DNA from: a plasmid
Length of the DNA: 64,000 nucleotides
Sequence record: NZ_CP119397.1
Reading direction: 5' to 3' (one strand)
The position numbers and the translations under genes are program-made. Below, piece after piece: positions 41,392-61,600 of this stretch (its first letter is position 1; every line of letters begins with the position of its first letter). The notes under the pieces are model-generated. The model saw nothing but the letters and a program-made list of their open reading frames with translations. It did no database searches and was not told the DNA's origin.

Positions 41392-42318
41392 TTAACACCC
41401 GGCGGCGATGAAATCCCCGTTGGCGCTGACCGGGATCACCGAGGTAAACAGCACCAGCGCAAACAGCATCAGCAGCGCGCCGCCGCACATCATCACGCCA
41501 CGGGCCACCGGCGGCAGGTAACGCCCTGCCAGCCCGCCCGGCGCGGCAATAATCCGCTCCCGCGCGTGGTGCACCAGCGTCGCCAGCAGTGTGACGGCCA
41601 GGGCCGTGCCGAGCGCCATCGCCATCACCGCGATCATGCCCCAGGTAAACATGCCGAGGGCATTGGCAAACACCAGGATCAGAATCGCGCCGCTGCAAGG
41701 CCGGATGCCGATGGCCGCGATCACCCACAGGGCGTTTTTCCCGCCGGTATCCGGCGGGTGAGAATGCCCGCAACCGCAGCCCGCGTCATGCTGCGCACTG
41801 CCGCGCCCATTCACCCCGGCGGCGCGCAGCATCACCACCAGCCCGAACGCGGCGATCAGCAATGCGCTGATTTTCTCCACCCAGTAGCGGCTGCGGCTGA
41901 GATCGCCCATCGAGAAATTAAACAGCACCGCCAGCACCAGCACGAACAGGATCGCGGTCACCCCCTGCGTCAGGCTGCCGAGCAGGGTGATGATCCGGCT
42001 GGTGTTCAGTTGCTGCCGGTGGCTGGCCAGATAGGTGGTGATAACAAATTTACCGTGGCCCGGCCCCACCGCGTGCAGCACCCCGTAGAGAAAACTGCAC
42101 AGCGTCAGCATCAGCCCGCCGCTGGCCTGGTGGTTATGCTGTTGCAGCAGATAGAGCACCAGAGAGCGGTGCAGGTAAATCTGCGCATTGAGGCAGGCCT
42201 GGATAAAGTCCGGCCAGTAGCGGCTGAGCAGCGCCGACGAGGCAGCCAGCAGGAGTGCGCCGGTCGCGAGCATGGCGAGGGCGGCAGGGTTGGCATTTTT
42301 CAGTGACAGACTCTTCAT
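41392..42318 (-). CDS. NicO/HoxN-like nickel/cobalt transporter family permease (copy 2)
   Basis: HAVGPGHGK motif and a His-rich loop (CGCGHSHPP). Start ATG overlaps the upstream permease stop (TGATG). Confidence 0.65.
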   Translation of the reverse strand: MKSLSLKNANPAALAMLATGALLLAASSALLSRYWPDFIQACLNAQIYLHRSLVLYLLQQHNHQASGGLMLTLCSFLYGVLHAVGPGHGKFVITTYLASHRQQLNTSRIITLLGSLTQGVTAILFVLVLAVLFNFSMGDLSRSRYWVEKISALLIAAFGLVVMLRAAGVNGRGSAQHDAGCGCGHSHPPDTGGKNALWVIAAIGIRPCSGAILILVFANALGMFTWGMIAVMAMALGTALAVTLLATLVHHARERIIAAPGGLAGRYLPPVARGVMMCGGALLMLFALVLFTSVIPVSANGDFIAAGC

Positions 42319-44108
42319 CAGGCAGCCCCAATAGTGGTTGACCTGTTGACTATAGTTGCCCGTGCCCGTCTGCGCCGCCCCGCCAGCCCGGCGGTGGTCA
42401 CCGCCAGTACTGAAAACAGCACCAGCGCGCCACCGGGCGCAAGCACTGCCCAGCCTGCACGCTCGAGGTACGGCATCCCTTCGGCCAGCACCCGCCCCCA
42501 CTCCGGCGCGGGCGGCGGTGCGCCCAGCCCCAGGAAACCGAGCGCCGCCAGCGCCAGCACAATCCCCGGCAGCCGTAACATCGCATGGCGCAGCAACGGC
42601 CCGCTCAGCGCCGGGAGCAGATAACGCAGCGTCCGCCGCCACGGGCCGACCCCCAGCACCGGCAGAATGCGGATATGCGGCTGGGCGTTGATCTCGCTGA
42701 CCAGCGCGGCGGTGTGCGCCGCCAGCGGTGCCCAACTGGTGGCCATCACCGCCAGCGCCGCGCCCCCGGCGGTCGGGCCGTTCACCGCCGCCACCACCAG
42801 CCCGGCAATCACCGGCGGCATGGCGTTGGCGGCCTCCACCGGGCCGCTGCTCAGGCGCGGAAACAGCCCGGCCAGCAGCCCGATCGCCAGGCTGGCAAAC
42901 GTCACCGCCAGCGCCAGCGCACAGGTATGCAGCGCGCCATGCGCCACCCGCGCCAGCAGATCGCGCCCGGTGGCATCCGCCCCGAACGGCAGATCCCAGC
43001 CGGGCGGCTGCAAGCGCATAAACATCGGCGTGACAGGGTCACGCGGCAGGCCGGCGATAACCGTAATGAGCAGCAGCAGCGCACACGCAGCCGGGACGAT
43101 CCACGCCCCCGGCGGCAGGCGGGGCGCCGGCATGGCAGCCGGTAACGCCCCGGCGTGCAGTGCCGGGCCAAGCAGTGCGCGCCGTCCCAGATTGGCCGCT
43201 GCACCGACGCCACACGCCAGCAGCAACAGCAGCAGCAGGCCGGTCTGCAACGCCGGGAGATCCTGCGCCGCCACCGCGCCCAGTGTGGCGCGCCCCAGCC
43301 CCGGAATGGCGAACACTTTTTCCACCGCCATTGCCCCGCCGGTCAGCCCGATGATCACCAGCCCGACCTGTGACAGCAGCCCCGGCAGCGTGCGCCGGAA
43401 CACTGCCGCGGCAATCTGGCGGCGCGGCACACCGGCCATCTGCCAGGTCAACAGCCATTTCTCATGGAAGGTGGCGGCGAACGCATCAGAAAAGAGCCGC
43501 CCCAGCAGCCCCCCGGCCGGGATCCCCAGCGCCAGCGCCGGTAACACCGCATGGTGCAGGCTGCGCCAGCCAAAGGGCGGGAACGCCTGAAGCCAGACCG
43601 CCCCCACCAGCAACAACAGGGAGGCCAGCAAAAACTCCGGCAAGGCGGTCAGCGCGGCGGGCACGCTGCCGCCGGGGCGCTGCGCCCGGCCTTTCAGCCC
43701 GGCCAGAAACGGGCGCAGGCAGATAAGCCCGGCCACCAGCACGGCCACCAGCAGCGCAAACGCCATCAGCGTCAGGGAGACACCGGCTGCCTGCAACATC
43801 CCCGGCCCGACCGGCTGGCCGGACACCCAGGAGGTGCCGGCATCGCCGTGCAGCAGGCCGCGCAGCCACTGTTGCAGCAGTGCCGGCGGCCCTTGTTCCA
43901 GCCCGAGCGCCTCGCGGATGGCGTTGAGTGTCTCCGGTGTCGCCTCCTGATCGCCGGATCGCGCCCGCAGCAGCGCCAGCGCCGGATCGCGGCCGGAGAG
44001 CCACGGCAACATCCCCACCAGGGCCACCACCGCGCCCAGCGTGACGAGGCGTGACAGCAGCGGCAACAGCCTGTCTGCCCCCAGGCAGAATCGATGAAAA
44101 ACGCGCAC
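42318..44108 (-). CDS. ABC transporter permease, fused tandem DppB/DppC-like (NikB-NikC-type) domains
   Basis: 596 aa with two BPD_transp_1-like permease modules. Confidence 0.7.
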   Translation of the reverse strand: MRVFHRFCLGADRLLPLLSRLVTLGAVVALVGMLPWLSGRDPALALLRARSGDQEATPETLNAIREALGLEQGPPALLQQWLRGLLHGDAGTSWVSGQPVGPGMLQAAGVSLTLMAFALLVAVLVAGLICLRPFLAGLKGRAQRPGGSVPAALTALPEFLLASLLLLVGAVWLQAFPPFGWRSLHHAVLPALALGIPAGGLLGRLFSDAFAATFHEKWLLTWQMAGVPRRQIAAAVFRRTLPGLLSQVGLVIIGLTGGAMAVEKVFAIPGLGRATLGAVAAQDLPALQTGLLLLLLLACGVGAAANLGRRALLGPALHAGALPAAMPAPRLPPGAWIVPAACALLLLITVIAGLPRDPVTPMFMRLQPPGWDLPFGADATGRDLLARVAHGALHTCALALAVTFASLAIGLLAGLFPRLSSGPVEAANAMPPVIAGLVVAAVNGPTAGGAALAVMATSWAPLAAHTAALVSEINAQPHIRILPVLGVGPWRRTLRYLLPALSGPLLRHAMLRLPGIVLALAALGFLGLGAPPPAPEWGRVLAEGMPYLERAGWAVLAPGGALVLFSVLAVTTAGLAGRRRRARATIVNRSTTIGAA

Positions 44109-47367: not shown

Positions 47368-48378
47368 TTAGCGCAGCAAGGGATTGCCGCTGCCGGTCAG
47401 CCCCGGCTGGGCGCTGAACCAGAGGAACAGCCCGGTCGCCAGCAGCAACAGCCCCCCGGCGAGGGTCAGGGAAGCGCGGCCGATACGTCGCCAGGCGGGC
47501 ACCGGGCCGCTGCGCAGGTTGCGCATCAACAGCCGCTGGAGGCTGTGCACGCCCAATGCCAGCAGCGAAATGGTCAGCGAGGTGCCGAACGCCATCACAA
47601 ACGCCGCCACCACGCCCCAGAGGTAAGCGCCGATCACCTTGGCGAACAGCAGCATCATGATGGCGCCCGAGCAAGGGCGCAGCCCCATCGATAGCACCAG
47701 CGCGACGCGGGTGCGCCAATCCCCCGCCGCTGCCAGTGCCTCATCGGTCGGCATATGGCGGTGGCCACAGCCGCAGTGTTCGCTGTGCACATGCGGCTCC
47801 CCCTTCAGCGGCCGCAATGCCCGGAACGGCTGCCGCAGGCTGTGCCAGTGCTGGCGCAGCGCCCTGAATGCGCGGCCCATCAACAGCACGCCCAGCCCCA
47901 TTACCAGCAGGTAACTGCCGCGCTCCAGCCAGAAACTGCTCTGGTGCAACTGGCGGGAGGAGAGATCAAACACGCCGAGCAGCAGCGTCACCAGCGCCAC
48001 TGCCACGCTGCCCTGTAACAGCGACGCGGCAAAGGTCAGGCACAGGCTACTTTTCAACCGGGAGGGGTGGGTCGCCAGATAGGTGGTGATCACCAGTTTG
48101 CCGTGCCCCGGCCCGGCTGCGTGGAGGATGCCGTACAACAGGCTGAACAGCACCAGAACCAGCCCGGCGCGTTGCGGCTCGGCCCTGACCTGCTGCATCA
48201 GCGCGGCGATCTGCCCGTTCAGGCTGCGCTGCCACTGGGTGCCCTGCCACAGCAGCGAGGGCCAGTGCTGCATCAGCCACAACCCGCCCAACAGCAGCAC
48301 GGCTGCCAGCAACAGCAGCGGCCAGAGCTGGAGCCAACGGCGGCGGCGTAAAGTCTGTGTCTGGGAAATCACTGGCAT
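47368..48378 (-). CDS. NicO/HoxN-like nickel/cobalt transporter family permease (copy 1)
   Basis: HAAGPGHGK motif and a His-rich loop (HSEHCGCGHRHMP). 336 aa. Confidence 0.65.
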   Translation of the reverse strand: MPVISQTQTLRRRRWLQLWPLLLLAAVLLLGGLWLMQHWPSLLWQGTQWQRSLNGQIAALMQQVRAEPQRAGLVLVLFSLLYGILHAAGPGHGKLVITTYLATHPSRLKSSLCLTFAASLLQGSVAVALVTLLLGVFDLSSRQLHQSSFWLERGSYLLVMGLGVLLMGRAFRALRQHWHSLRQPFRALRPLKGEPHVHSEHCGCGHRHMPTDEALAAAGDWRTRVALVLSMGLRPCSGAIMMLLFAKVIGAYLWGVVAAFVMAFGTSLTISLLALGVHSLQRLLMRNLRSGPVPAWRRIGRASLTLAGGLLLLATGLFLWFSAQPGLTGSGNPLLR

Positions 48379-48995
48379 GTCAGGGTCACCTTCTGGGCAA
48401 ACTGGCGGCCGAGATCCATGTCTTCCGGCGGCGCATCGGCTTTATCCAGCGACAGGGCATAGTTCTGGAGCGAGGCGTCAGGCGTTGGGGTGTCCAGCGT
48501 AATGGTGCAGGCGTCCATCTCCGGCGGGAGGTGCAGGCTGGCGGCGTTTTCATAATGCATATCAACGAAATAGGTCGGGTCAAAGGTGGAGAAGGTATAC
48601 GTCTGGCCTTTGAGCGGCTGCGGCGTGGCCAGCGGCAGCATATACTCCAGCACTGCCTTATGCCCTTCACGCAGCAGGCGGTAAGAGGGCGGCAGGTTAT
48701 GGAATTTGACCCGCTGGCCGTCATGGTAGAACTCGGTGAAATAGTGCTGGCCCAACACGTTGGCCATCACCTCAGCGGCGAGCTTTTTCCATACTTCCGA
48801 GTCGGGCGGCGCGTCCCCGGCGTCATACAGCAGATCGGCAGAAGTGATTTCATCCATCGTCCAGCGCATCTGCAGGCCGGTCAGCTGCGCATCCTGCTGG
48901 AGGAGCGTCGCCTGCATGGTGATAAAGCTGTGCGGGTGCGCCCACGCCAGCGGCGCGCAAACCGACAACAGCAGGGGCAGATAAGAGAGTCGCAT
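48369..48995 (-). CDS. DUF1007-family periplasmic protein (partner of NicO-like permease)
   Basis: Signal peptide MRLSYLPLLLSVCAPLAWAHPHSF. Overlaps the permease gene. This two-gene arrangement is widespread. Confidence 0.6.
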   Translation of the reverse strand: MRLSYLPLLLSVCAPLAWAHPHSFITMQATLLQQDAQLTGLQMRWTMDEITSADLLYDAGDAPPDSEVWKKLAAEVMANVLGQHYFTEFYHDGQRVKFHNLPPSYRLLREGHKAVLEYMLPLATPQPLKGQTYTFSTFDPTYFVDMHYENAASLHLPPEMDACTITLDTPTPDASLQNYALSLDKADAPPEDMDLGRQFAQKVTLTCQ

Positions 48996-49163
48996 AGTGC
49001 TACGGCGTCCTGGTTGTTAACCACAAGCGCGGACAATATCGGCTCCGGGCGGTGGTGGCAAGCGTGGGGAAAGCAGGCCCGCCGCCGCGGCGCCCTGTGC
49101 CATGTGGCACATCACCCGAATTTCTCGTTGCGCGTATGATACCCCGCAATTTATCCACATAGA

Positions 49164-49676
49164 TTGCAAGGGATTCTTATGCCGCAACACTACACCAATG
49201 CTCTGACCCCGGCCTTAGTGGCGTCGATAAATGAACCTGTGTTTACCGCTGCTCAGCTTGCGGAGATGAACGACGACGCCCGAGTGCTGATAGCCACCCA
49301 GGAAGCATTCCATCGCGCGCATCCGGTAACGGCCATTTACCGCCTCGCCGTGGCAGGCAGCCTGACCCGCCGCGGCGGCGTGGCCGATGAGTTTAACCCT
49401 GACCCAGAACAGGGCTATAAAATCCGGCTCAGTGACGGCCAATGGGTGAGTGTGCTGACAGAAGGCTGCACCGTCACCTACCCGGACGGCAGCACCGCGC
49501 GGATTATCAGCAGTGCCGGCAGCCTGCACATGTTTAAAGACCGGGGCGTGGCGCTGGTCGGCAGCCGCCTCGATAACGGCGATGAGATTATCAGCACGCC
49601 CCAGGGCAGCTGCTACCTCATCGCGCAGCAGGGCGTGCCGATGCCGGAGGATTTCCTGCTCGTCATCAGGGCGTAA
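49164..49676 (+). CDS. Hypothetical protein, candidate accessory/chaperone for the downstream PAAR toxin
   Basis: 170-aa ORF whose stop lies 3 nt before the toxin ATG. No confident family. Confidence 0.45.
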   Translation: MQGILMPQHYTNALTPALVASINEPVFTAAQLAEMNDDARVLIATQEAFHRAHPVTAIYRLAVAGSLTRRGGVADEFNPDPEQGYKIRLSDGQWVSVLTEGCTVTYPDGSTARIISSAGSLHMFKDRGVALVGSRLDNGDEIISTPQGSCYLIAQQGVPMPEDFLLVIRA

Positions 49677-49679
49677 CCT

Positions 49680-51368
49680 ATGGGATACCGGCCCAATATT
49701 CTCGGGCGCGGCAAGGCGCTCTCCTGTGACAAAACCACCACCGGCGCACGGCTGCTCTCCTCGCTTCCGCTCACCCAGTACAACGTTTATGGCCACGCGG
49801 TTATCCGGCGCGGCGATGTCACCACCGACTGCCCTAAGTGCGGCCAGCGCGGCCGTGTGGTCGAGGGCGACACGCGCTTTACCATTCATGGCATCCCCGT
49901 CGCCGTTGACGGCGGGCAGGTAAGCTGCGGCTGCCCGCCCGGCACCAACCGCATCATCGCCCCGCTCGGGCAGTGGCTGGGGCGCGGCCCCTCGCCGCAA
50001 GAGGTGGCGCAGGAGAAGCACACCGCGATGCTGGCCGCCCAACAGGCGGAGCGGGAAGCCCAGGCGTTACAGCAGGCAGCAGCGCGCGAGCGCAACCGGG
50101 TGTTTGCCAAATCCTGTTTGCGCGGTGAGGGCTGTAACGATGCCGGGGACACCCCGGAGCCGCACACCCACTTTGCCGAGATGGGGATTTTCCAGGCGCT
50201 GCCGGAGGCGGACGTACCGCAGCACGCGCAGGCCGCAAAAAGAAAACCGCCCGCGCCGGAGGATATTCCAAAACCCAAAAAGCGCAGTGCGCTCTACCGC
50301 TGGCTGAACGGCAACCATGAGGAGAGGGACTATCAGGCGGCGGTTGCCGCCGCCAGCGCCGCCGCACGGGCACACACCGCCACCGCCGGGGCGGCGGTAC
50401 TTGAGCAGGTCGCGGGGCGCTTCACGCCCTACGGCACCTGGGCAGTACGCGCAGGCACGGTGGCCGCCGGGGGCTTTGGCGCGCCCGTCGCCGGGCTGCT
50501 GGTGGGGATGATGCCGGGGCGGCTCAATGACGGTGAGCAGGACTTTATCGACCGGATGCGCGCCGAACAGATGCGCACCGCCCCGAGCCGGGTGCGTTTC
50601 ACCTGGGAAAGCGATGCACAGGGCAACCCGGTGCCGCGCGGCTGGCACACGCCGCCGGGCCGGGACAGCGTGCGGGTGCGCAGCATGGACTGGGACAGCC
50701 AGCGGCAGGCGTATACCTTCACCACCGAGGAAGAACAGCCCGTCACGATTATCTGGACGCCGGACCGTTCCGGGGTGCATGTTCCCACGAACACCGGCAA
50801 CCCGAATCCTCCGAAGCTGCCAAACCCGGTGATGGTGAACCCGCTGCCCGACAGCACCGGTCTCCGGGCCACCACCAGCCCGTCCCCGGACGAGAAAAGT
50901 TTCGCGGATTACATCCTGATTCTGCCGGTGGCGGACATTCCGCCAATTTATATTTATCTGAGCAAGCCGCCGGTGGAATTTCTGGAGGTAAAACCGTACC
51001 GTGATTTTAACGGACGCTCCAGGCAGGGGCATTATCATGTGGATCACATGCCATCACGTCAGGCCGTAATTTTGTACTTACGGCGTAAGCATCCTGATTT
51101 ACGTGACAAGCAAATCAAAGAGATGGCCGATCAAGTGGCGGCAATTGCCATCCCTGAAAAAGTACACCGTCAGGAAAGCGCAACCTATGGTGGAAGAAAC
51201 CGCTCTCAAATGGAATTTGACTCTTATAACCTTCGGGCCGCTATCAATAAGGATTTTGACCAAATCAAACCGATATTGCTGGAAGAATATGGTGCGACAG
51301 AGGCAGAACTGGACGCCTGCAGAGAAGAAATGCACAGAATTAATACTGAACTGGGAATATACAAATGA
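49680..51368 (+). CDS. PAAR-domain polymorphic toxin (T6SS-type effector) with C-terminal predicted HNH/EndoVII-like nuclease domain
   Basis: N-terminal PAAR-like fold (RRGDVTTDCPKCG...IHGIPVAVDGGQVSCGCPPGTNRIIAP, compare the canonical GD..TCP...IGG.PAAR.GD.C.C). Gln/Ala-rich linker. The C-terminal about 170 aa drop to low GC and contain GHYHVDHMPS. The stop overlaps the first immunity-gene start (ATGA). Confidence 0.65.
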   Translation: MGYRPNILGRGKALSCDKTTTGARLLSSLPLTQYNVYGHAVIRRGDVTTDCPKCGQRGRVVEGDTRFTIHGIPVAVDGGQVSCGCPPGTNRIIAPLGQWLGRGPSPQEVAQEKHTAMLAAQQAEREAQALQQAAARERNRVFAKSCLRGEGCNDAGDTPEPHTHFAEMGIFQALPEADVPQHAQAAKRKPPAPEDIPKPKKRSALYRWLNGNHEERDYQAAVAAASAAARAHTATAGAAVLEQVAGRFTPYGTWAVRAGTVAAGGFGAPVAGLLVGMMPGRLNDGEQDFIDRMRAEQMRTAPSRVRFTWESDAQGNPVPRGWHTPPGRDSVRVRSMDWDSQRQAYTFTTEEEQPVTIIWTPDRSGVHVPTNTGNPNPPKLPNPVMVNPLPDSTGLRATTSPSPDEKSFADYILILPVADIPPIYIYLSKPPVEFLEVKPYRDFNGRSRQGHYHVDHMPSRQAVILYLRRKHPDLRDKQIKEMADQVAAIAIPEKVHRQESATYGGRNRSQMEFDSYNLRAAINKDFDQIKPILLEEYGATEAELDACREEMHRINTELGIYK

Positions 51369-51832
51369 CAATGGATATTAAATCGCTGATATGCAGTTTA
51401 GAAGAACCCTATCAAGCTATTTGCGATGCGGGAATTATTACTTACCGAACGCCGCCGCAAGGCACACAGTGTGATCCTTATCTGACACTGGACATGAAAA
51501 ATGAAGGTGTTTTCTTGACCTTCACTAATGATGATAAAAAAGCACTTAGCGAGATCTCTTTAGAGCTTAAAACTGGCAGGAGAAAGGGGGTATATCCCAA
51601 TGAGCTTCTCGCCCCTTTAAAGCAGGATATGTCCCGTAGCTGGGTACATAAGGTCTTTGGATCACCGGATAAAAGCAACCCGCCAAAGATAGTTTTAAAA
51701 ACAGAAATTGGCTGGGTTGAGCGCTTTATGGTAGAGGGTTTTCATATTCCTATAGCGATGGTCTTTTACTATGACATGGAGGAAATGGCTGAGGCTGTCA
51801 CTTTCCTTCCGACCTCGAGATTGAGGTGGTAA
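51365..51832 (+). CDS. Immunity-protein candidate (paralogue 1, cognate to the toxin)
   Basis: Translationally coupled to the toxin. Paralogous to 51912..52379 and 53198..53665 (shared ...IGWVERFMVEGFHIPIAMVFYYDM..FLPTSRLRW terminus). Confidence 0.6.
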   Translation: MTMDIKSLICSLEEPYQAICDAGIITYRTPPQGTQCDPYLTLDMKNEGVFLTFTNDDKKALSEISLELKTGRRKGVYPNELLAPLKQDMSRSWVHKVFGSPDKSNPPKIVLKTEIGWVERFMVEGFHIPIAMVFYYDMEEMAEAVTFLPTSRLRW

Positions 51833-51911
51833 ATCCCGTCTGCCTGTATAGATTTCTGTGCAGGCAGAGTAATGGCAGGCAAGCCCTGCCGATATGAATA
51901 GGGCTGTACAA

Positions 51912-52379
51912 ATGACAGTAAACGTAGACGCCTTAATAAATAGCCTGGGGAAATCTTATAACGATATGCTTGAGGCTGAACTTATTCCCTATAAAACCCC
52001 CCCTACCGGATTTTCAGGTGATCCTGAGATCAGTCTGGATATGGCTAAAGAGGGGGTTTATCTGTCATTTAAGCGGGATGGGCGGATTTTACAGACTGTG
52101 ATCCTGAGCATTCAACATGACAAAGTAAGTAATTGGGTTTTCCCAAATGACCTGCCTTCCCCCCTACAAAAGATTATGTCAAGGCCATGGGTTCATGAAC
52201 ACATTGGTAAACCATTAAGAAGCGTACCTCCGAAAGTTATTATGAGACGAGCTTTTGGCTGGATGGATTTATACGAAGCTAAAGGTTGGGCAATCCCGAT
52301 CAGTATGCAAATCAGCTATGACGTGATGGATAATGTCAGAGCCGTCGCCTTTATGCCCACCGCCGAATTACGCTGGTAG
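51912..52379 (+). CDS. Immunity-protein paralogue 2 (orphan)
   Basis: Start MTVNVDALINSLGKSY matches paralogue 3. C-terminus ...FMPTAELRW. Confidence 0.6.
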   Translation: MTVNVDALINSLGKSYNDMLEAELIPYKTPPTGFSGDPEISLDMAKEGVYLSFKRDGRILQTVILSIQHDKVSNWVFPNDLPSPLQKIMSRPWVHEHIGKPLRSVPPKVIMRRAFGWMDLYEAKGWAIPISMQISYDVMDNVRAVAFMPTAELRW

Positions 52380-52551
52380 CCTTATCACTTTTACCACCCC
52401 GCCCGCGCATGCCACTGCGCGGGCAGTGATGTGATTCAGTATCGTGTCGGTGAATTGTAATTAACACTTGAGCAACTTGATAAAAATGATGATATATTTT
52501 CACCACAATAAAACTCTATTAACTTAACTATAACGCGCTCAAAATATTTTT

Positions 52552-52731
52552 ATGGGAAAATTACACCTACGCCCTTGCTGTGGCGATAAAGAAATATATG
52601 AACCTGGATCATGTGAAATATGTGAGCGTTGTGGCTGGGAGGATGATCCAGCGCAGAGTAAGCATCCCGATACTTTACGGGGAGCGAACCATATGACGCT
52701 TAATGAAGCCAGGCAAGCCCTGCCGATATGA
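52552..52731 (+). CDS. CPCC-family cysteine-rich small protein (59 aa)
   Basis: Translation MGKLHLRPCCGDKEIYEPGSCEICERCGWEDDPAQSKHPDTLRGANHMTLNEARQALPI matches the CPCCG...CEIC..W.DD...GaN..sL.eAR pattern of the Cys_rich_CPCC domain. It is not in the supplied ORF track. It overlaps the listed antisense ORF 52539..52784, which is judged spurious. Confidence 0.65.
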   Translation: MGKLHLRPCCGDKEIYEPGSCEICERCGWEDDPAQSKHPDTLRGANHMTLNEARQALPI

Positions 52732-52886
52732 TAATCACCACATGGCAGCAAATATTCCGTTATTTTATATTTATTTACATACAAAGCCGCGGGAAACGAG
52801 TAGCCAGATGGAAAAATACCACGTGAAAATTTATGAATGGGATTCTCAACATGGTACTGTTGAAATATGAGAAAGGTTGAAAAGTA

Positions 52887-53138
52887 ATGATTTCTTATTC
52901 TATTGAGATATTTGATAAATGTAGTGAAGAGTTAATTAAAGAAATAAAAATACCTAATTATCAACTAGATCTAGTGATTGAGATCATGGGATTTGACACT
53001 ATAGAAAAAGAGTCCTTTATTAAGGGGGTGGGGGGTTTCAATGTTACAAAGGAACAGGCTGTCAAATTGGAATCCTTATTAATGGTAGAATTCCATTCAG
53101 AAAAATACATTATTCAGATTGCAGGTGGCGAGATATAA
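52887..53138 (+). CDS. Small hypothetical protein (83 aa) in the immunity island
   Basis: Low-GC ORF between the CPCC gene and immunity paralogue 3. Confidence 0.4.
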   Translation: MISYSIEIFDKCSEELIKEIKIPNYQLDLVIEIMGFDTIEKESFIKGVGGFNVTKEQAVKLESLLMVEFHSEKYIIQIAGGEI

Positions 53139-53197
53139 AAGCATTTATTTTCCCATTATTTTATGGATGGAATAAACAGTAAAATGGAATTTTATAA

Positions 53198-53665
53198 ATG
53201 ACCGTAAATGTTGATGCAATGATTAATAGCTTAGGAAAGAGTTACATTGAGCTTGTTGATTCAGGATTGATTGTGTACAAATCCCCGCCGAAAGGAGCGT
53301 CAGGCTCTCCTGTGCTTAGTCTGGAGATGGCATTAGAGGGAATTTTCTTATCCTTTAAACGTGATGGACGAATTTTAAAATCGATAACACTTCGGCTCCA
53401 ACATAATGAAAGTCATAATTGGGCTTTTCCTAATCAACTACCGCTTCCTTTACAAAATAATATGTCCCGCAGTTGGGTACATGAAAATATTGGGTCGCCA
53501 TTAAGAAGTGCGCCTCCCTACATTGTGATGAAACAGGCTTTTGGCTGGGCAGATCTGTATGAATCAAAAGGACGTCCTATACCCACCAATATGCAAATTA
53601 ACTATGACGTGATGGATAATGTAAGATCGGTCACCTTTATGCCCACGTCCGAACTTCGCTGGTAG
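53198..53665 (+). CDS. Immunity-protein paralogue 3 (orphan)
   Basis: 155 aa. Closely related to paralogue 2 throughout. Confidence 0.6.
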   Translation: MTVNVDAMINSLGKSYIELVDSGLIVYKSPPKGASGSPVLSLEMALEGIFLSFKRDGRILKSITLRLQHNESHNWAFPNQLPLPLQNNMSRSWVHENIGSPLRSAPPYIVMKQAFGWADLYESKGRPIPTNMQINYDVMDNVRSVTFMPTSELRW

Positions 53666-53682
53666 CGTCCCACACTTTACCC

Positions 53683-54739
53683 GGCTTTGTTGAATAAATC
53701 AGATTTCGGGTAAGTCTCCCCCGTAGCGGGTTGTGTTTTCAGGCAATACGCACGCTTTCAGGTATACCTGCTTTCGTCATTTTGTTCAGCGCTCGTACCA
53801 GGGCCATAGCCTCCGCAACCTGACCATCGTAGTCACGCAGCGTCAGTGAACCCCCGAACAGCTGTTTTACCCGGTACATCGCCGTTTCCGCTATCGAGCG
53901 ACGGTTGTAATCTGTTGTCCATTTCCACCGCGCATTACTCCCGGTCATTCGCTGATTAGCCACTGCACGGTTACGGTCTGCATATTCACCGGGCCAGTAA
54001 CCCGCACCTTTTCGGGGAGGGATAAGCGCGCTGATTTTCTTACGCCGCAGTTCATCGTGACATAGCCGGGTATCGTAAGCGCCATCGGCGGCGGCTGACC
54101 TGATTTTCCGGTGGGTTTGCCGGATTAACCCGGGGAAGGCCTCTGAGTCCGTAACGTTGTTCAGCGACAGGTCAGCGCAGATGATTTCATGTGTTTTACT
54201 GTCAACGGCGAGATGCAGCTTACGCCAGATACGGCGGCGTTCCTGGCCATGCTTTTTGACTTTCCACTCGCCTTCACCGAAGACCTTCAGCCCGGTGGAA
54301 TCAATTACCAGGTGTGCGATTTCACCCCGGGTGGGCGTTTTGAAACTGACATTAACCGACTTTGCCCGCCTGCTGACACAGCTGTAATCCGGGCAGCGTA
54401 GCGGAACGTTCATCAGAGAAAAAATGGAATCAATAAAGCCCTGCGCAGCCCGCAGGGTCAGCCTGAATACGCGTTTAATGACCAGCACAGTAGTGATGGC
54501 AAGGTCAGAATAGCGCTGAGGTCTGCCTCGTGAAGAAGGTGTTGCTGACTCATACCAGGCCTGAATAGCTTCATCATCCAGCCAGAAAGTTATGGAGCCA
54601 CGGTTGATGAGGGCTTTATTGTAGGTGGGCCAGTTGGTGATTTTGAACTTTTGCTTTGCCACGGAACGGTCTGCGTTGTCGGGAAGATACGTGATCTGAT
54701 CCTTCAACTCAGCAAAAGTTCGATTTATTCAACAAAGCC
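53683..54739 (-). mobile_element. IS903-group (IS5 family) insertion sequence, intact, with 9-bp target-site duplication
   Basis: 1057 bp. 18-bp terminal inverted repeats GGCTTTGTTGAATAAATC at 53683-53700 and 54722-54739. Direct repeat ACTTTACCC at 53674-53682 and 54740-54748. Confidence 0.9.
53739..54707 (-). CDS. IS903-type transposase (IS5 family, DDE)
   Basis: 322-aa ORF filling the IS. Size and composition are typical of IS903 transposases. Family assignment is from recall of the IS903 ends. Confidence 0.85.
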   Translation of the reverse strand: MKDQITYLPDNADRSVAKQKFKITNWPTYNKALINRGSITFWLDDEAIQAWYESATPSSRGRPQRYSDLAITTVLVIKRVFRLTLRAAQGFIDSIFSLMNVPLRCPDYSCVSRRAKSVNVSFKTPTRGEIAHLVIDSTGLKVFGEGEWKVKKHGQERRRIWRKLHLAVDSKTHEIICADLSLNNVTDSEAFPGLIRQTHRKIRSAAADGAYDTRLCHDELRRKKISALIPPRKGAGYWPGEYADRNRAVANQRMTGSNARWKWTTDYNRRSIAETAMYRVKQLFGGSLTLRDYDGQVAEAMALVRALNKMTKAGIPESVRIA

Positions 54740-54785
54740 ACTTTACCCCGACCCGCGCAGCTTATTGCGCGGGCGGGGTATGACA

Positions 54786-55667
54786 TCACTTTATGCTTTC
54801 ACCTGATGAATCTCGGCAATATAGCCGCCGGGGGAATTCGACCATCGCGGCGGGCGCGGTGGTATCGGCAGAACGCCAGAGGATTTTCGCATGGCTGGCC
54901 AGCGCCTTGTCCAGGGTTTGCTGGAGATCGGTGACACCGTAACCGGTGCGCTCATGGCCGAACGGGTAAGGCAGGTGGCCGTCGGTCACGAAAATCTTGA
55001 CCTTGCCGAAGGTGGAGGAGAGGTCCACTTCACGCACGGTGCCGCTGGTTTCGCCGATCAGGGCGGCGCTGACCTGCTGGTCACGGTCAACTTTGCCTTG
55101 TGAAAACTGCTGGTAGCTGCGGATGAAATCCTTCACCCGGTAGCGTGACAGGTAGACGCGGTTCTCCGGCACGCTGCTCAGCGGCGCGTAATCCGGCGCT
55201 TTGGTGTGCCAGTAAAGCTGCATATTCACGCCGCCCGGCCACTGGATCACCGCATCGCGGCCAATCGGGTCCGGGAACGGCTCGACCAGCACATCCGCCC
55301 CTGCCGCTTTCGCCTGCGCCACGGCCGCATCCATATCCCGCACCAGAAAACCGTTGCGCTCATCGCCGAACGGGTAAGGTGTTGGGGTCTGGAAATCAAA
55401 CACCGAGAAGCTGCCGACCGGTGTCAGCACCAGTTGGGAGAGCGTCTCGCTGGGGGTAGGGGTGACGTCGGCGGTGATGCGTTGGGTAGCCTTGCCGCCA
55501 AAGGTGTGCAGCAGGCTGTTGACGAAATCATCCATTTTGCCTGGCTGCACGTAAACATGGGTGGTGTCATATTGGGCACCCACCGCCAGGCTCTGGGCGG
55601 CCCAGGCCGCCGGGCACGCGCTCAGGGAGAGCGCCAAAGCGAGCACGCCAAACCGGGTTTTATTCAT
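54786..55667 (-). CDS. Secreted protein with tandem VOC-like (glyoxalase fold) repeats
   Basis: Signal peptide MNKTRFGVLALALSLSACPAAWA. Two internal repeats (PYPFGDERNGFLVRDMD... and LPYPFGHERTGYGVTDL...). Confidence 0.5.
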   Translation of the reverse strand: MNKTRFGVLALALSLSACPAAWAAQSLAVGAQYDTTHVYVQPGKMDDFVNSLLHTFGGKATQRITADVTPTPSETLSQLVLTPVGSFSVFDFQTPTPYPFGDERNGFLVRDMDAAVAQAKAAGADVLVEPFPDPIGRDAVIQWPGGVNMQLYWHTKAPDYAPLSSVPENRVYLSRYRVKDFIRSYQQFSQGKVDRDQQVSAALIGETSGTVREVDLSSTFGKVKIFVTDGHLPYPFGHERTGYGVTDLQQTLDKALASHAKILWRSADTTAPAAMVEFPRRLYCRDSSGESIK

Positions 55668-58649: not shown

Positions 58650-61600
58650 ATGAGCAACAACGCCCCCCAGTCCGCCTGGCCCGCCCCGGATGACCCGGCT
58701 GACGAACCGGCCTTTACGCTGGATGAGCGCGTGGTGTTTATGCCGCTGGCCCAGGATGGCTGCCTCACCTGGTCATGGTGCCGGCACCCGGTCTGCGGCC
58801 GCGAATACATTCTGGCCACCGCCGCCGGGGAAGAGGCGGAGCCGCAGGCGACGCTGCTGCTGAAAAATGAGTTCGCCCTGCGCGGCCACCTCGCGCCGGA
58901 CTGGGCGGTGATCCCGGTGGCCACGGCGCTGTATCACGGCCGCTACGCGCTGCTCTATCGCCCTTTCCCGTTTGAAACCCTGACGCGCATCACCGGCACC
59001 CCGGCCGGGGACATGGCAGTCTTCCTGGATCTGGCGCTGAACCTCTGCGCGCCCTTGTTGCAGATGCACCAGCACGGCCTTATCCACGGCGACATCAAAC
59101 CCGGCAACCTGTTTATCAATAATGACGGCAGTTGCCGCCTCGGCGGCTTCGGGCTGGCATCGGGCGCGACCGGCACCGGCGCACGCACCACCGTCTCGGC
59201 AGCGGGCGGGACGCTTGCCTATATGTCACCGGAACATGCCGCCCGTACCCGGCGCGCCGTGGACCACCGCAGCGATCTCTACAGCCTCGGCATCGTGCTG
59301 TATGAGCTGCTGACCGGCAGCCTGCCGTTTGACCTGACCGAGGGCGGGCAGGCGGAGTGGGTGCATCACCATATCGCCTCCGAGCCGCGCCCGCCGCATC
59401 AGGTACGCCCCGGCACGCCGGATATCCTCTCGTCGATTATTCTGCGGCTGCTGGCCAAATCCCCGGAAAACCGTTACCAGACCACCGAAGGGCTGATGGC
59501 CGATCTCCGCCGCTGCCGCGCCACCGTCTCCCCGTCCGGCAGCCTTATGCCCTTTCCGCTGGGTTTGCAGGATCGCGCGGCCGCCCTGCCGCTCTCTGAC
59601 GCGCTGTTCACCGGCCATCCGCAGAGCCAGGCGCTGCTTGAGGCCTTCAGCGGGGTAAACCACCGCGGCACGCAGGCGCTGGTGGTCATCAGCGGGCCGT
59701 CCGGAATCGGGAAATCGTCACTGATCGCCTCGGCGCTGAGTGCGCTGCAACACCAGCCGGTGCTGCTGGCGGTGAGCCGTGTGGATCAGTACCAACCGGC
59801 GCTGCCCTATGCGGTGCTGACGTCCGCCTTCCGGTCACTGGCGCTGCATATTCTCGGGCTGCCGGCGGCGGAGATTGCCCGCTGGAAAGCGCGGCTCAGC
59901 CAGACACTCGGCAGTTATGCCGGGCTGGCGGTGAACCTGGTGCCGGAGCTGGGCCTGTTGCTGGCGCAACCCTCGTGGATCCCGCCGGATACGCTGTCGA
60001 TTGATGCCCGTGCGCGTTTCAACCACATGGTGCTCTGCCTGATCAAAGCGTTCGCCACGCCCTGCTGCCCGCTGGTGCTGATGATTGATGACATCCACTG
60101 GGTGGATGCGGCCAGCCTGCAACTGCTGGAATATGTGGTGAGCAACAGCACCACACTGCCGCTGCTGATGGTGGTGGCGTACCGCGACGACACCCACACC
60201 CACGGCGGGCCGCCGCTGGCCGGGTTACGGGCTGCCGCGGCGAAGGTCACTGAGATCCGGCCGGAACCGATGACGGTAAAGGGCGTCACGCGCTGGCTGG
60301 CAGACGCCTTCCAGACACGGGTAGCGGGCATTGCCTCCCTGGCGGCGCTGGTGCACGAAAAAACCGGCGGCAACCCGCTGTTCGTGCAGCAATTTGTGAA
60401 ACGCATCGTGGATGACGGGCTGGTGACCCACCATACCCCGCATAAAAAATGGCATTACGATCTGCCGGCCATCCGCGCGCGCCATTACACCGAGAATGTC
60501 GCCGGGCTGGTGCTGCAACAACTGGCGCAGATGCCGCCCGACACGCGGAAATTGCTCGGCAGCCTGGCCTGCCTGGGCAATGCCGGGAATCTGGCGGTGC
60601 TCACCCGCGTGCTGGGAACCGGCATCACTGAAATGTGCCGGGTGCTGCACCCGGCCGTGGCGGCCCAGTTGATCACGTTGTCCGTCAATGAGTACGCATT
60701 TACCCATAACCGGGTGCAGGAAGCCGCGTTTGCGCTGCTGGACCCGGCGGAAAAGAGCCACCTGCATCTGGCCACGGCCAGCCTGCTGGCGGAGATGTCG
60801 CAACAGGCGACCGGCAACGACACGCTGTTCCGGGCGGTTCACCATGTGGCATCGGCGATTGAGGCGATTGAACCGCTGCCGCAGCGCCGGATGTTCCGCG
60901 AACTGAGCCTGCTGGCGGCCCAGCGGGCCAAACGCACCGGCGATTCGCTCTCGGCGCTGGGTTACCTGCGCACCGCCCGCGCGCTGGCCGACAAAAATGC
61001 GCCGGACGATCACCAGCTCACCTTCACGCTGGATCTGGAAGAGGCGGAGTGCGAGTTTCTGCTCGGCAACCTCGCCACCGCGGCAAGGCTTTGTGCGCAA
61101 CTGGCGGGCCGGCCCGGCGGGCTGGCGGAAAAAGCGGTGGCTGCCTGCCTGCTGGCGGAGATCCACATGCGGCAATCGCACCGGCAACAGGCGCTGGAGA
61201 CGGCCATCGCCTGGCTGTCGGTGTTCGGCATTTCGCTCAGCCGCTACCCGGACGTGCGCGAATGCGACGACGCCCATGAGGCAATCGTCGCACGGGTAGG
61301 CGACGATCCGGCAGCGGTGTTCAAGGCCCTGCCGCGCATGGATGACCGGGATACCGAAGCGGTCATGAACCTGCTCGCCAGCGCCGGGATTTTCGCCAGT
61401 TTCTGCTGCCCGCGCCTGCATTTCCTGATCCTCTGCCGGATGCTGCACCTGACGCTCGACCACGGCATGACCGGGGCCGGGGCGACGGCGCTGGCCTGGT
61501 TCGGCGTGTTGATCGGCCACCGCTACGAGACGTACCAGCGTGGTTTCCGCTATGGCCTGCTGGCGCGGGAGCTGGTCAGCCGCCACGGCTACCTTAATGC

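Follow-up and report, generated by a model that had tools for sequence, protein, structure and literature searches.

The closest described relatives of the system reported here are YPK_0952 of Yersinia pseudotuberculosis and Ppp1-3 of Enterobacter bugandensis, which are encoded, like the effector described below, in 'lone PAAR' loci outside the gene clusters for type VI secretion systems (T6SS) and are followed by immunity genes (PMC7813860, PMC11237486, PMC10763514). YPK_0952, which joins a PAAR to a Pyocin_S domain, is secreted by T6SS-3 (PMC7813860, PMC11237486). In nuclease bacteriocins, Pyocin_S serves as the domain for inner-membrane translocation (IMT); it is also known in PAAR, VgrG and Hcp effectors (PMC9040868). 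A further point of reference is TseN, a T6SS effector of Acidovorax citrulli that was shown in 2025 to be a deoxyribonuclease (DNase) of a new class (PMC12574953). In the present study we analysed a plasmid-borne stretch of 64,000 nucleotides (sequence record NZ_CP119397.1; hereafter 'the window'), the DNA of which is 97-99.7% identical to several contigs of Chimaeribacter arupi. It encodes a 562-residue protein with a PAAR domain, a Pyocin_S domain and a C-terminal toxin domain, preceded by a small partner gene and followed by an array of immunity-type genes (Table 1). This locus is very probably an orphan T6SS effector island, without a linked vgrG gene, of a C. arupi-like bacterium.

The overall type of the locus is already known, as PAAR-Pyocin_S polymorphic effector islands of T6SS have been noted in silico in Enterobacter as the 'Ppp' type (for PAAR Pyocin-S domain-containing proteins). 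A T6SS specialist would therefore not be surprised by this textbook polymorphic-toxin island. Its useful yield lies in the pairing of a TseN-class domain with DUF6392/CdiI_5, in the pairing of the Cytotoxic domain with DUF7683, and in an unstudied family of PAAR-fold partner proteins.

The C-terminal toxin domain

A first-pass annotation of the sequence had described the 562-residue protein as a nuclease-type polymorphic toxin with a PAAR domain, the last codons of which change abruptly to low GC. This view is supported, and the C-terminal domain is read as horizontally acquired. The GC content of the toxin gene is 0.66-0.69 over the PAAR, linker and Pyocin_S parts and 0.457 in the toxin domain, with a mean of 57% for the window and values of 0.31-0.48 for the array downstream of the toxin gene. 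The switch at about 50920-50980 corresponds to the junction PPIYIYLS, and the low-GC part takes in the last ~145 codons rather than ~170.

No Pfam model, whether of the Tox-* or HNH kind or any other, recognises the last ~133 residues, even when the limit is relaxed to E≤1. A search with the toxin region returned 57 relatives, all from Enterobacterales and mostly short entries named 'S-type pyocin, partial'. When a profile of 35 sequences of the toxin domain was used, TseN (PDB 9J9W chain B, 9j9w_B; E 8e-8) was the sole solved protein found outside the Pyocin_S part. [quoted passage not shown] The toxin domain is 19-23% identical to TseN, and the two have in common the motifs DH-x-PS (conserved here as D455-H456-M-P-S, 51042-51056), T-Y/W-x-x-R/K-N and D-x-x-N-L-R/K. 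Among the conserved positions mutated in TseN only H254 was essential, and the crystal structure was obtained with the H254A variant (PMC12574953). In the profile alignment, the histidine of IPEKVH in our domain (H496, the invariant H76 of the domain; 51165-51167) stands opposite the alanine of IPPDIA in the H254A chain, the numbering of that chain being inferred, and H496 is thus the predicted essential histidine. Altogether, profile, fold model and motifs lead us to assign the C-terminal domain as a putative TseN-class nuclease that, by analogy with TseN, would act as a DNase.

When 1.8 billion representative proteins were searched with a profile, 772 clusters with this domain were obtained at E≤1e-3, in all of which it is C-terminal. 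The scaffolds sampled include PAAR-Pyocin_S proteins, a cloacin-type bacteriocin, Rhs proteins and a TPS/DUF637 (CdiA-like) protein. A class of DNase that was defined on one antifungal effector of Acidovorax is thus a widespread C-terminal toxin domain, one for which the 2025 copy of Pfam that was searched holds no model. In one protein of this set (P0208, 862 residues), Pyocin_S and a Col-Pyo DNase domain precede the C-terminal TseN-class domain, and two nuclease domains are apparently present in tandem.

PAAR, linker and Pyocin_S parts of the effector

The N-terminal PAAR domain proposed in the first-pass annotation is recognised by Pfam (Table 1). Reading of the sequence reveals three PAAR-like repeats and four cysteines, of which C51 and C85 are at least 90% conserved among 70 effectors of this type. 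The linker, previously described as rich in Gln and Ala, is indeed rich in Ala, Gln and Glu; it continues with a stretch rich in Pro and Lys and with a hydrophobic, Gly-rich segment (about residues 255-285). The Pyocin_S domain, which had been overlooked before, matches PF06958 over 135 of the 139 model positions and PDB entry 3MFB over 135 residues (E 2.7e-27), and it is closed by the conserved junction motif PPIYIYLS(K). Furthermore, the NCBIfam model for the T6SS DNase effector VPA1263 aligns with residues 226-429, though far under the model cut-off (E 2.8e-14).

In five independent draft assemblies of Chimaeribacter (L001, L010, L003, L097 and L098; labels of this kind denote loci retrieved from other genomes) a contig ends inside the toxin gene, at the equivalents of positions 49779, 49900, 50726, 50772 and 50868, i.e. 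within about 49780-50870 of the window. This suggests that the conserved linker/Pyocin_S region is repeated elsewhere in these genomes and that they encode further Ppp-type paralogues.

DUF6392/CdiI_5 immunity genes

Each of the three 155-residue proteins encoded downstream of the effector covers all 151 of the 151 positions of PF19929 (DUF6392). As read before, the stop codon of the toxin gene overlaps the start codon of the first of these genes (ATGA, 51365-51368), and the two further paralogues recognised at that stage are 40-42% identical to the first. In precomputed annotation, DUF6392 bears the newer Pfam name CdiI_5, which fits because the toxin domain also occurs on the TPS/DUF637 (CdiA-like) scaffold.

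A toxin domain of this class adjacent to a DUF6392 gene was found in the window, in L003, L089-L091, L092 (twice), L094 and L096. The hosts are other Chimaeribacter assemblies, Enterobacter cloacae (with a frameshifted effector), Salmonella enterica subsp. salamae and a metagenome scaffold, the latter with a full effector and its immunity gene followed by an orphan toxin fragment with an immunity gene. The idea of one cognate and several orphan immunity genes, put forward in the first-pass annotation, is therefore backed by a toxin-domain/DUF6392 pairing that recurs in at least five other loci. In the E. cloacae strains (L089-L091) the homologous locus is decaying: the partner gene is cut to an 83-residue remnant, the effector is split into open reading frames (ORFs) of 387 and 184 residues, and in two of the strains an IS3-type transposase is inserted upstream. 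DUF6392 stays intact there, which looks like immunity kept after loss of the weapon.

The toxin domain in the window represents a minor subtype, with 74-76% identity to fragments from E. kobei and Serratia and 45-53% to the common type. Immunity protein 1 is divergent to match, with 39-43% identity to most other copies. Immunity protein 2 is 83% identical to the protein encoded after the orphan toxin fragment in L092, and immunity protein 3 shares 52-66% identity with other copies. The subtypes of the immunity proteins thus follow those of the toxin domains. Because divergence of the one parallels divergence of the other, gene 1 is predicted to encode the cognate immunity protein and genes 2 and 3 are predicted orphans directed against other subtypes. 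DUF6392/CdiI_5 would accordingly be the usual immunity of the TseN-class domain in Enterobacterales, which gives this domain of unknown function a predicted one. Profiles built from 3 and 9 DUF6392 sequences matched no chain of the PDB, including TsiN, at E≤1 and E≤10, and our search of the literature on CPCC and DUF6392 returned nothing useful.

A small CPCC-family gene interspersed among the immunity genes had been pointed out before, and its product is indeed recognised as Cys_rich_CPCC, with an additional weak Pfam match to mono-CXXC. The gene recurs between CdiI_5 copies in the array of sister strain L003. Its 3' end varies by strain (59 residues in the window, 64 in L003:1827-2021), and the strain-specific segment begins at 52720, within the gene. 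The last 22 bp of the gene (52710-52731) are present a second time upstream of immunity gene 2, and we regard this copy as a scar of cassette shuffling by recombination. GC-rich inverted repeats lie just 3' of immunity genes 1 and 2, at 51836-51870 (CTGCCTG...CAGGCAG) and 52397-52430 (CCCGCGCA...TGCGCGGG), and could be terminators or elements resembling repetitive extragenic palindromes at the borders of the cassettes.

The upstream PAAR-fold partner

The gene immediately upstream of the effector had been listed with 170 codons, ending 3 nucleotides before the toxin gene. The spacing is correct, but translation probably starts at the ATG at 49179 rather than at the TTG at 49164, as in the homologues and with AAGGGA upstream, which gives 165 residues. 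As had been suspected, the protein does not belong to the DUF4123, DUF1795 or DUF2169 adaptor families, none of which was matched in Pfam or NCBIfam. Its fold can nevertheless be recognised: AlphaFold2, Foldseek and Pfam matches of its relatives point to a divergent PAAR fold with a helical N-terminal extension. In the model (pLDDT 92), an all-beta domain comes after three short helices (residues 11-47); the extension has ~48 residues and the PAAR-like beta domain ~115. The top five Foldseek matches in the PDB were all PAAR spike-tip proteins (those of phages KP1 and P1, gp5.4 of T4, gp163.1 of phiKZ, and VCA0105 of Vibrio cholerae), with probabilities of 0.75-1.0, TM scores on the target of 0.46-0.65 and modest E-values (0.014-0.16). 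We collected 232 relatives, mostly of 160-168 residues, from Enterobacterales and Pseudomonas, some of them annotated as 'PAAR domain-containing'. The Pfam PAAR_motif was detected at E≤0.01 in 20 of 36 family members (best E-value 2.5e-9); the protein in the window, with an E-value of 0.024, fails this cut-off. A profile of the family gave a chance match only among the PDB sequences. We also considered a 'split PAAR', in which each gene would encode half a PAAR domain, and rejected it: partner and effector have three PAAR-like repeats each, and the model of the partner spans full-length solved PAAR proteins.

To define the genetic context of the family, one genome per species was scanned. This yielded 79 loci, in 69 of which a large ORF lies directly downstream of the partner gene. 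Together with the effector in the window these are 70 downstream proteins, and 62 of them contain the PAAR_motif. In their C-terminal parts we found Pyocin_S (16), Tle1-like lipase (8), Cytotoxic (7), Col-Pyo DNase (4), Ntox44 (3) and DUF3289 (1) domains, while many of the downstream PAAR proteins have no recognised toxin domain. The gap between partner and effector is 3-5 nucleotides in seven of seven called gene pairs. Neither vgrG nor other T6SS genes were seen in the partner neighbourhoods inspected, and ten large ORFs upstream of the partner in other genomes encode helicases, TonB receptors, glycosidases and the like, none of them VgrG. One locus of Pseudomonas fluorescens (L093:10001-14477) has a single partner gene followed by two pairs of a PAAR-effector gene (474 and 475 codons) and a small ORF, the second effector being without a partner gene of its own.

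From sequence and model, the partner thus appears to be a divergent PAAR-fold protein that is genetically tied to one class of PAAR effectors, and it is probably translationally coupled to the effector. It would contribute to delivery by assisting in the loading of the effector onto the spike or in its stabilisation there, which is the least supported step of our account. In its full form, which we advance tentatively, the proposal is that the family is an undescribed class of T6SS accessory proteins, Zn-less look-alikes of PAAR with a helical N-terminal extension that are specifically required to load or stabilise 'lone' PAAR effectors (Pyocin_S-nuclease, Tle1-like, Ntox44 and other types from Enterobacterales, Pseudomonas and one Xanthomonas) onto a distant VgrG. 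If true, this would add a fourth adaptor logic to those of Tap/DUF4123, Eag/DUF1795 and TvpA/DUF2169, and a need for the partner in loading would explain how effectors encoded far from vgrG find a spike. We found no described role for the family in the searchable literature, which yielded studies of DUF2169/Tvp, DUF4123, prePAAR/Eag and IglG instead; in view of an incomplete library this is weak evidence of absence.

Alternatively, the partner could be an independent spare tip that caps a VgrG by itself and has no specific role for the downstream toxin. The complete PAAR-like fold would be in line with this, as would the PAAR_motif matches in 20 of 36 relatives, the fact that stand-alone PAAR proteins are common and the single partner gene that precedes two effector/immunity pairs in the P. 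fluorescens locus. We nevertheless consider a spare tip rather doubtful. It leaves the linkage to one effector class (62 of 70, over Enterobacterales, Pseudomonas and one Xanthomonas), the narrow gap to the effector gene and the joint decay of partner and effector in E. cloacae unaccounted for. Moreover, PAAR tips usually hold Zn via His or Cys, whereas the partner family has no conserved Cys; it also carries a conserved helical N-terminal extension.

Displacement of an older toxin domain

Downstream of the CPCC gene we identified a degenerate stump of a colicin-E3-like ribonuclease acting on ribosomal RNA (rRNase; 'Cytotoxic', PF09000) that was absent from the first-pass annotation. It reads NIPLFYIYL...IYEWDSQHGTVEI, contains internal deletions and ends in a premature stop; in a tblastn comparison with a PAAR-Pyocin_S-Cytotoxic effector of E. 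bugandensis, 13 of 13 residues are identical in IYEWDSQHGTVEI. A remnant of 55 residues with a precomputed Cytotoxic match is also present in L096. The 83-residue ORF that follows the stump directly had been listed before as an interspersed ORF; its position stands, and we now read it as a DUF7683 gene. As DUF7683 genes also directly follow effectors with a Cytotoxic domain in E. bugandensis (L004/L006) and Chimaeribacter (L097/L098), this ORF is a predicted orphan immunity gene for the displaced rRNase domain. These gene orders allow DUF7683 to be provisionally identified as the immunity family that goes with the colicin-E3-like rRNase domains of such effectors.

Comparison of strains shows how the stump arose. 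The principal effector encoded at this site in L097 and L098 has an intact rRNase domain and is followed by DUF7683 and an orthologue of immunity gene 3. Homology between the window and L097 ends at 50965/50966, the end of PPIYIYLS, restarts in the rRNase stump (52802-52868), skips 75 bp and then runs on through DUF7683 and immunity gene 3; over the block 52867-53682, identity to L098 is 99.75%. In sister strain L003, identity to the window is 99.7% through 52719, after which two different DUF6392 copies follow. Because homology breaks at PPIYIYLS and resumes in the stump, and because sister strains keep the rRNase version, we conclude that a low-GC cassette of ~1.8 kb (DNase domain, immunity genes 1 and 2, and CPCC) displaced most of an older rRNase domain. 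The route was recombination at the conserved PPIYIYLS junction, which left the stump of the old domain behind. The strain comparison also provides an unusually clean natural case in which one toxin domain was displaced by another at a defined junction motif.

An insertion sequence (IS) that is absent from the sister strains follows immunity gene 3. It has a transposase ORF at 53739-54707 on the minus strand, terminal inverted repeats at 53683-53715 and 54707-54739, and a flanking 9-bp target duplication, ACTTTACCC, at 53674-53682 and 54740-54748. A DDE transposase, inverted repeats, a 9-bp duplication and a length of about 1057 bp are what we take to be the hallmarks of the IS903 group. This element was inserted downstream later than the displacement of the rRNase domain. 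Together with the Pyocin_S domain, the stump and the 22-bp CPCC-tail remnant, it is one of four features that were missing from the first-pass annotation.

Proposed mode of action and alternatives

The following mode of action can be envisaged. Seated by its PAAR domain at the tip of a spike whose VgrG is encoded elsewhere, the 562-residue protein would be fired into a neighbouring Gram-negative cell. The Pyocin_S domain would then take the C-terminal domain out of the periplasm and through the inner membrane, a step that is FtsH-dependent in nuclease pyocins and colicins; for pyocin G, cytoplasmic entry needs the IMT domain and proteolytically active FtsH (PMC9040868). In the cytoplasm, the C-terminal 133 residues would degrade DNA in a manner dependent on H496. 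The producer would be shielded by the translationally coupled immunity protein 1, while the two orphan DUF6392 proteins and the DUF7683 protein may guard against siblings equipped with other DNase subtypes or with the rRNase version. Delivery by a T6SS is suggested because the effector has a PAAR domain, because the related YPK_0952 is secreted by T6SS-3, and because C. arupi DSM115072 is reported to have two T6SS clusters, of which one is complete and includes vgrG and hcp while the other is partial (PMC10587679). This report eases the concern, raised in the first-pass annotation, that the genome might lack a T6SS.

Several points weigh against this account. The whole of it is computational as far as this protein is concerned. 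T6SS are documented for the species C. arupi and not for the strain that carries the window, and a vgrG gene is found nearby neither in the window nor at the related loci that were examined. As the first-pass annotation had stated, T6SS core genes appear to be absent from the window: none was found among ten other ORFs of at least 405 codons, smaller core genes not having been scanned, and none among the called neighbour genes in sister strains. The match to TseN is remote at 19-23% identity, so that the substrate could differ, for example RNA instead of DNA. DUF6392 is unrelated in sequence to TsiN, and a TsiN-type partner was not found here. It is difficult to see how a single VgrG tip would accommodate two complete tandem PAAR folds, which leaves the role of the partner speculative. 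Lastly, no T6SS effector has so far been tested for FtsH dependence (PMC9040868).

Could the protein instead, or in addition, be a contact-independent bacteriocin that is released and gains entry by way of a receptor in the outer membrane together with its own Pyocin_S domain? Pyocin_S is a hallmark of soluble nuclease bacteriocins, the toxin domain also occurs on a cloacin-type scaffold (P0185), and Tce1, a neighbouring effector in Y. pseudotuberculosis, kills in a contact-free manner (PMC7813860). We find this improbable in view of the N-terminal PAAR domain, the requirement of clpV3 for secretion of the related YPK_0952 and the lack of a colicin- or cloacin-type N-terminal translocation domain in Pfam searches, a TonB box and a lysis gene not having been searched for.

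There is also little probability that the main role of the locus is defensive, as an immunity island with a silent or decaying toxin and with selection acting on the orphan immunities. Four immunity-type genes do stand against one toxin, the stump and the IS element speak of ongoing erosion, and the homologous locus of E. cloacae is frameshifted and IS-disrupted. In the window, however, partner and effector are both intact, their DNA is 92.8-99.7% conserved in sister strains, and the IS element sits past the last immunity gene without interrupting an ORF.

An assignment of the C-terminal domain to the HNH (His-Me finger) nucleases of Tox-GHH/SHH type, as suggested in the first-pass annotation, can scarcely be upheld: the His-rich GHYHVDHMPS, with a DH dipeptide ending a beta strand, superficially recalls HNH signatures, but the comparison with Tox-* models that was proposed at that time gave no match, a beta-beta-alpha metal finger was not found, the essential residue of TseN is a helix histidine (H254) while the DH histidine is intact in the inactive crystal construct, and the domain was assigned to the TseN class because profile and fold match TseN and motifs are shared.

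Coordinates and surroundings of the locus

All ORFs named in the first-pass annotation are present in the ORF list, at or near the coordinates given there. The features of the locus are compiled in Table 1.

Table 1. Features of the effector island in the window, with the evidence for each.
Feature	Position	Strand	Evidence
PAAR-fold partner, 165 residues	49179..49676	+	ATG start, AAGGGA resembling a ribosome-binding site, TAA at 49674-49676
Effector gene, 562 residues	49680-51368	+	PAAR, linker, Pyocin_S, 133-residue toxin domain
Effector residues 1-100, PAAR domain (C51/C54/C83/C85)	49680..49979	+	Pfam PAAR_motif at residues 17-86, E 4.8e-11
Effector residues 101-294, linker	49980..50561	+	Reading of the translation
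Effector residues 295-429, Pyocin_S (IMT) domain	50562..50966	+	PF06958 at residues 295-426, E 4.6e-31
Effector residues 430-562 and stop, TseN-class toxin domain (predicted DNase)	50967..51368	+	Profile and fold match to TseN
Immunity gene 1, DUF6392/CdiI_5, predicted cognate	51365..51832	+	PF19929, E 3.5e-54
22-bp duplicate of the CPCC gene's 3' end (52710-52731)	51876..51897	+	blastn self-comparison, 22/22 identical
Immunity gene 2, DUF6392/CdiI_5, predicted orphan for another toxin subtype	51912..52379	+	PF19929, E 1.2e-69
Cys_rich_CPCC protein, 59 residues	52552..52731	+	PF14206, E 3.3e-14
Degenerate colicin-E3-like rRNase ('Cytotoxic', PF09000) stump	52751..52870	+	tblastn, E 5e-7
DUF7683 protein, 83 residues	52887..53138	+	PF24731, E 2.7e-17
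Immunity gene 3, DUF6392/CdiI_5, predicted orphan, ancestral to the locus	53198..53665	+	PF19929, E 4.5e-69
IS903-like (IS5 family) insertion sequence, 1057 bp	53683..54739	-	NCBIfam transpos_IS5_2, E 6e-107

Exact-sequence look-ups returned no record for the 562-residue toxin or the 59-residue CPCC protein. A scan of 48900-54900 for promoters and terminators gave a number of sites not above that in shuffled sequence, and the PADLOC defence models gave zero matches. The ten other large ORFs of the window mentioned above encode, among others, amylases, parts of ABC transporters, NicO and HpaB; eight have Pfam domains unrelated to T6SS and two have no match. Directly upstream of the toxin island lies an operon for an ABC transporter of the peptide/nickel type. 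It is flanked by two NicO-type metal transporters (41392-42735, 47368-48378 and 48369-48995, all on the minus strand and including the DUF1007 partner of one of them). NicO sequence is partly duplicated, the segment 48066-48170 being 77% identical to a second site in L001. Elsewhere in the window, an ORF of 644 codons (10151-12085, minus strand) without a Pfam or NCBIfam match lies in an island of 39% GC and was possibly acquired horizontally. In a region of 65% GC, two minus-strand ORFs of 594 (60225-62009) and 310 codons (62073-63005) lack NCBIfam matches, and the former has no Pfam match either. These could be genuine unknowns or, in such high-GC DNA, spurious frames.

Comparison with known systems

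YPK_0952 and Ppp1-3 likewise have an N-terminal PAAR domain and a Pyocin_S domain at about residues 295-440, and with about 520-580 residues they are of the same length as the present effector. In the E. bugandensis locus with the rRNase variant (L004), the partner gene is likewise present and immunity is encoded by a DUF7683 gene. The difference lies in the toxin domain, which is here of the TseN class, and in the immunity, which is here DUF6392. Term searches within the YPK_0952 and Ppp papers did not bring up the upstream PAAR-fold partner.

TseN and TsiN of A. citrulli (PDB 9J9W) represent the solved relatives of the toxin domain. TseN, which was studied as an antifungal effector, is of the cargo type: it carries a FIX motif together with a signal for nucleolar localisation and depends on VgrG5, a chaperone of the DUF2169 family and a PAAR-like protein (PMC12574953). 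Unlike TseN, the domain described here is fused to PAAR and Pyocin_S, which implies a bacterial cytoplasmic target, and unlike TsiN the immunity protein belongs to DUF6392, with no detectable sequence similarity between the two.

With regard to the partner, the IglG protein of Francisella offers a comparable PAAR-like fold with a functional N-terminal helix. A spike tip that is served by an adjacent small accessory protein is also seen in the pairs of DUF2169/TvpA with DUF4150/PIPY and of Eag/DUF1795 with prePAAR. Unlike the DUF2169, DUF1795 and DUF4123 adaptors, however, the partner would itself have a PAAR fold, and its gene immediately precedes that of a second, complete PAAR domain.

The nuclease S-type pyocins and colicins (pyocin G and colicins E9, E3 and D) and Usp share with the present effector the order of Pyocin_S followed by a swappable nuclease domain and a linked small immunity gene, and the displaced domain is of the type found in colicin E3. 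The effector differs from them in having no receptor-binding or Tol/Ton translocation domain, passage of the outer membrane being the presumed task of PAAR and the T6SS. Lastly, Rhs and CdiA arrays show the same displacement of C-terminal toxin and immunity modules at a junction motif (VENN or PxxxxDPxGL, in place of PPIYIYLS), with orphan immunities, toxin stumps and IS elements downstream as in the present locus, where the scaffold is PAAR-Pyocin_S and the array is much shorter.

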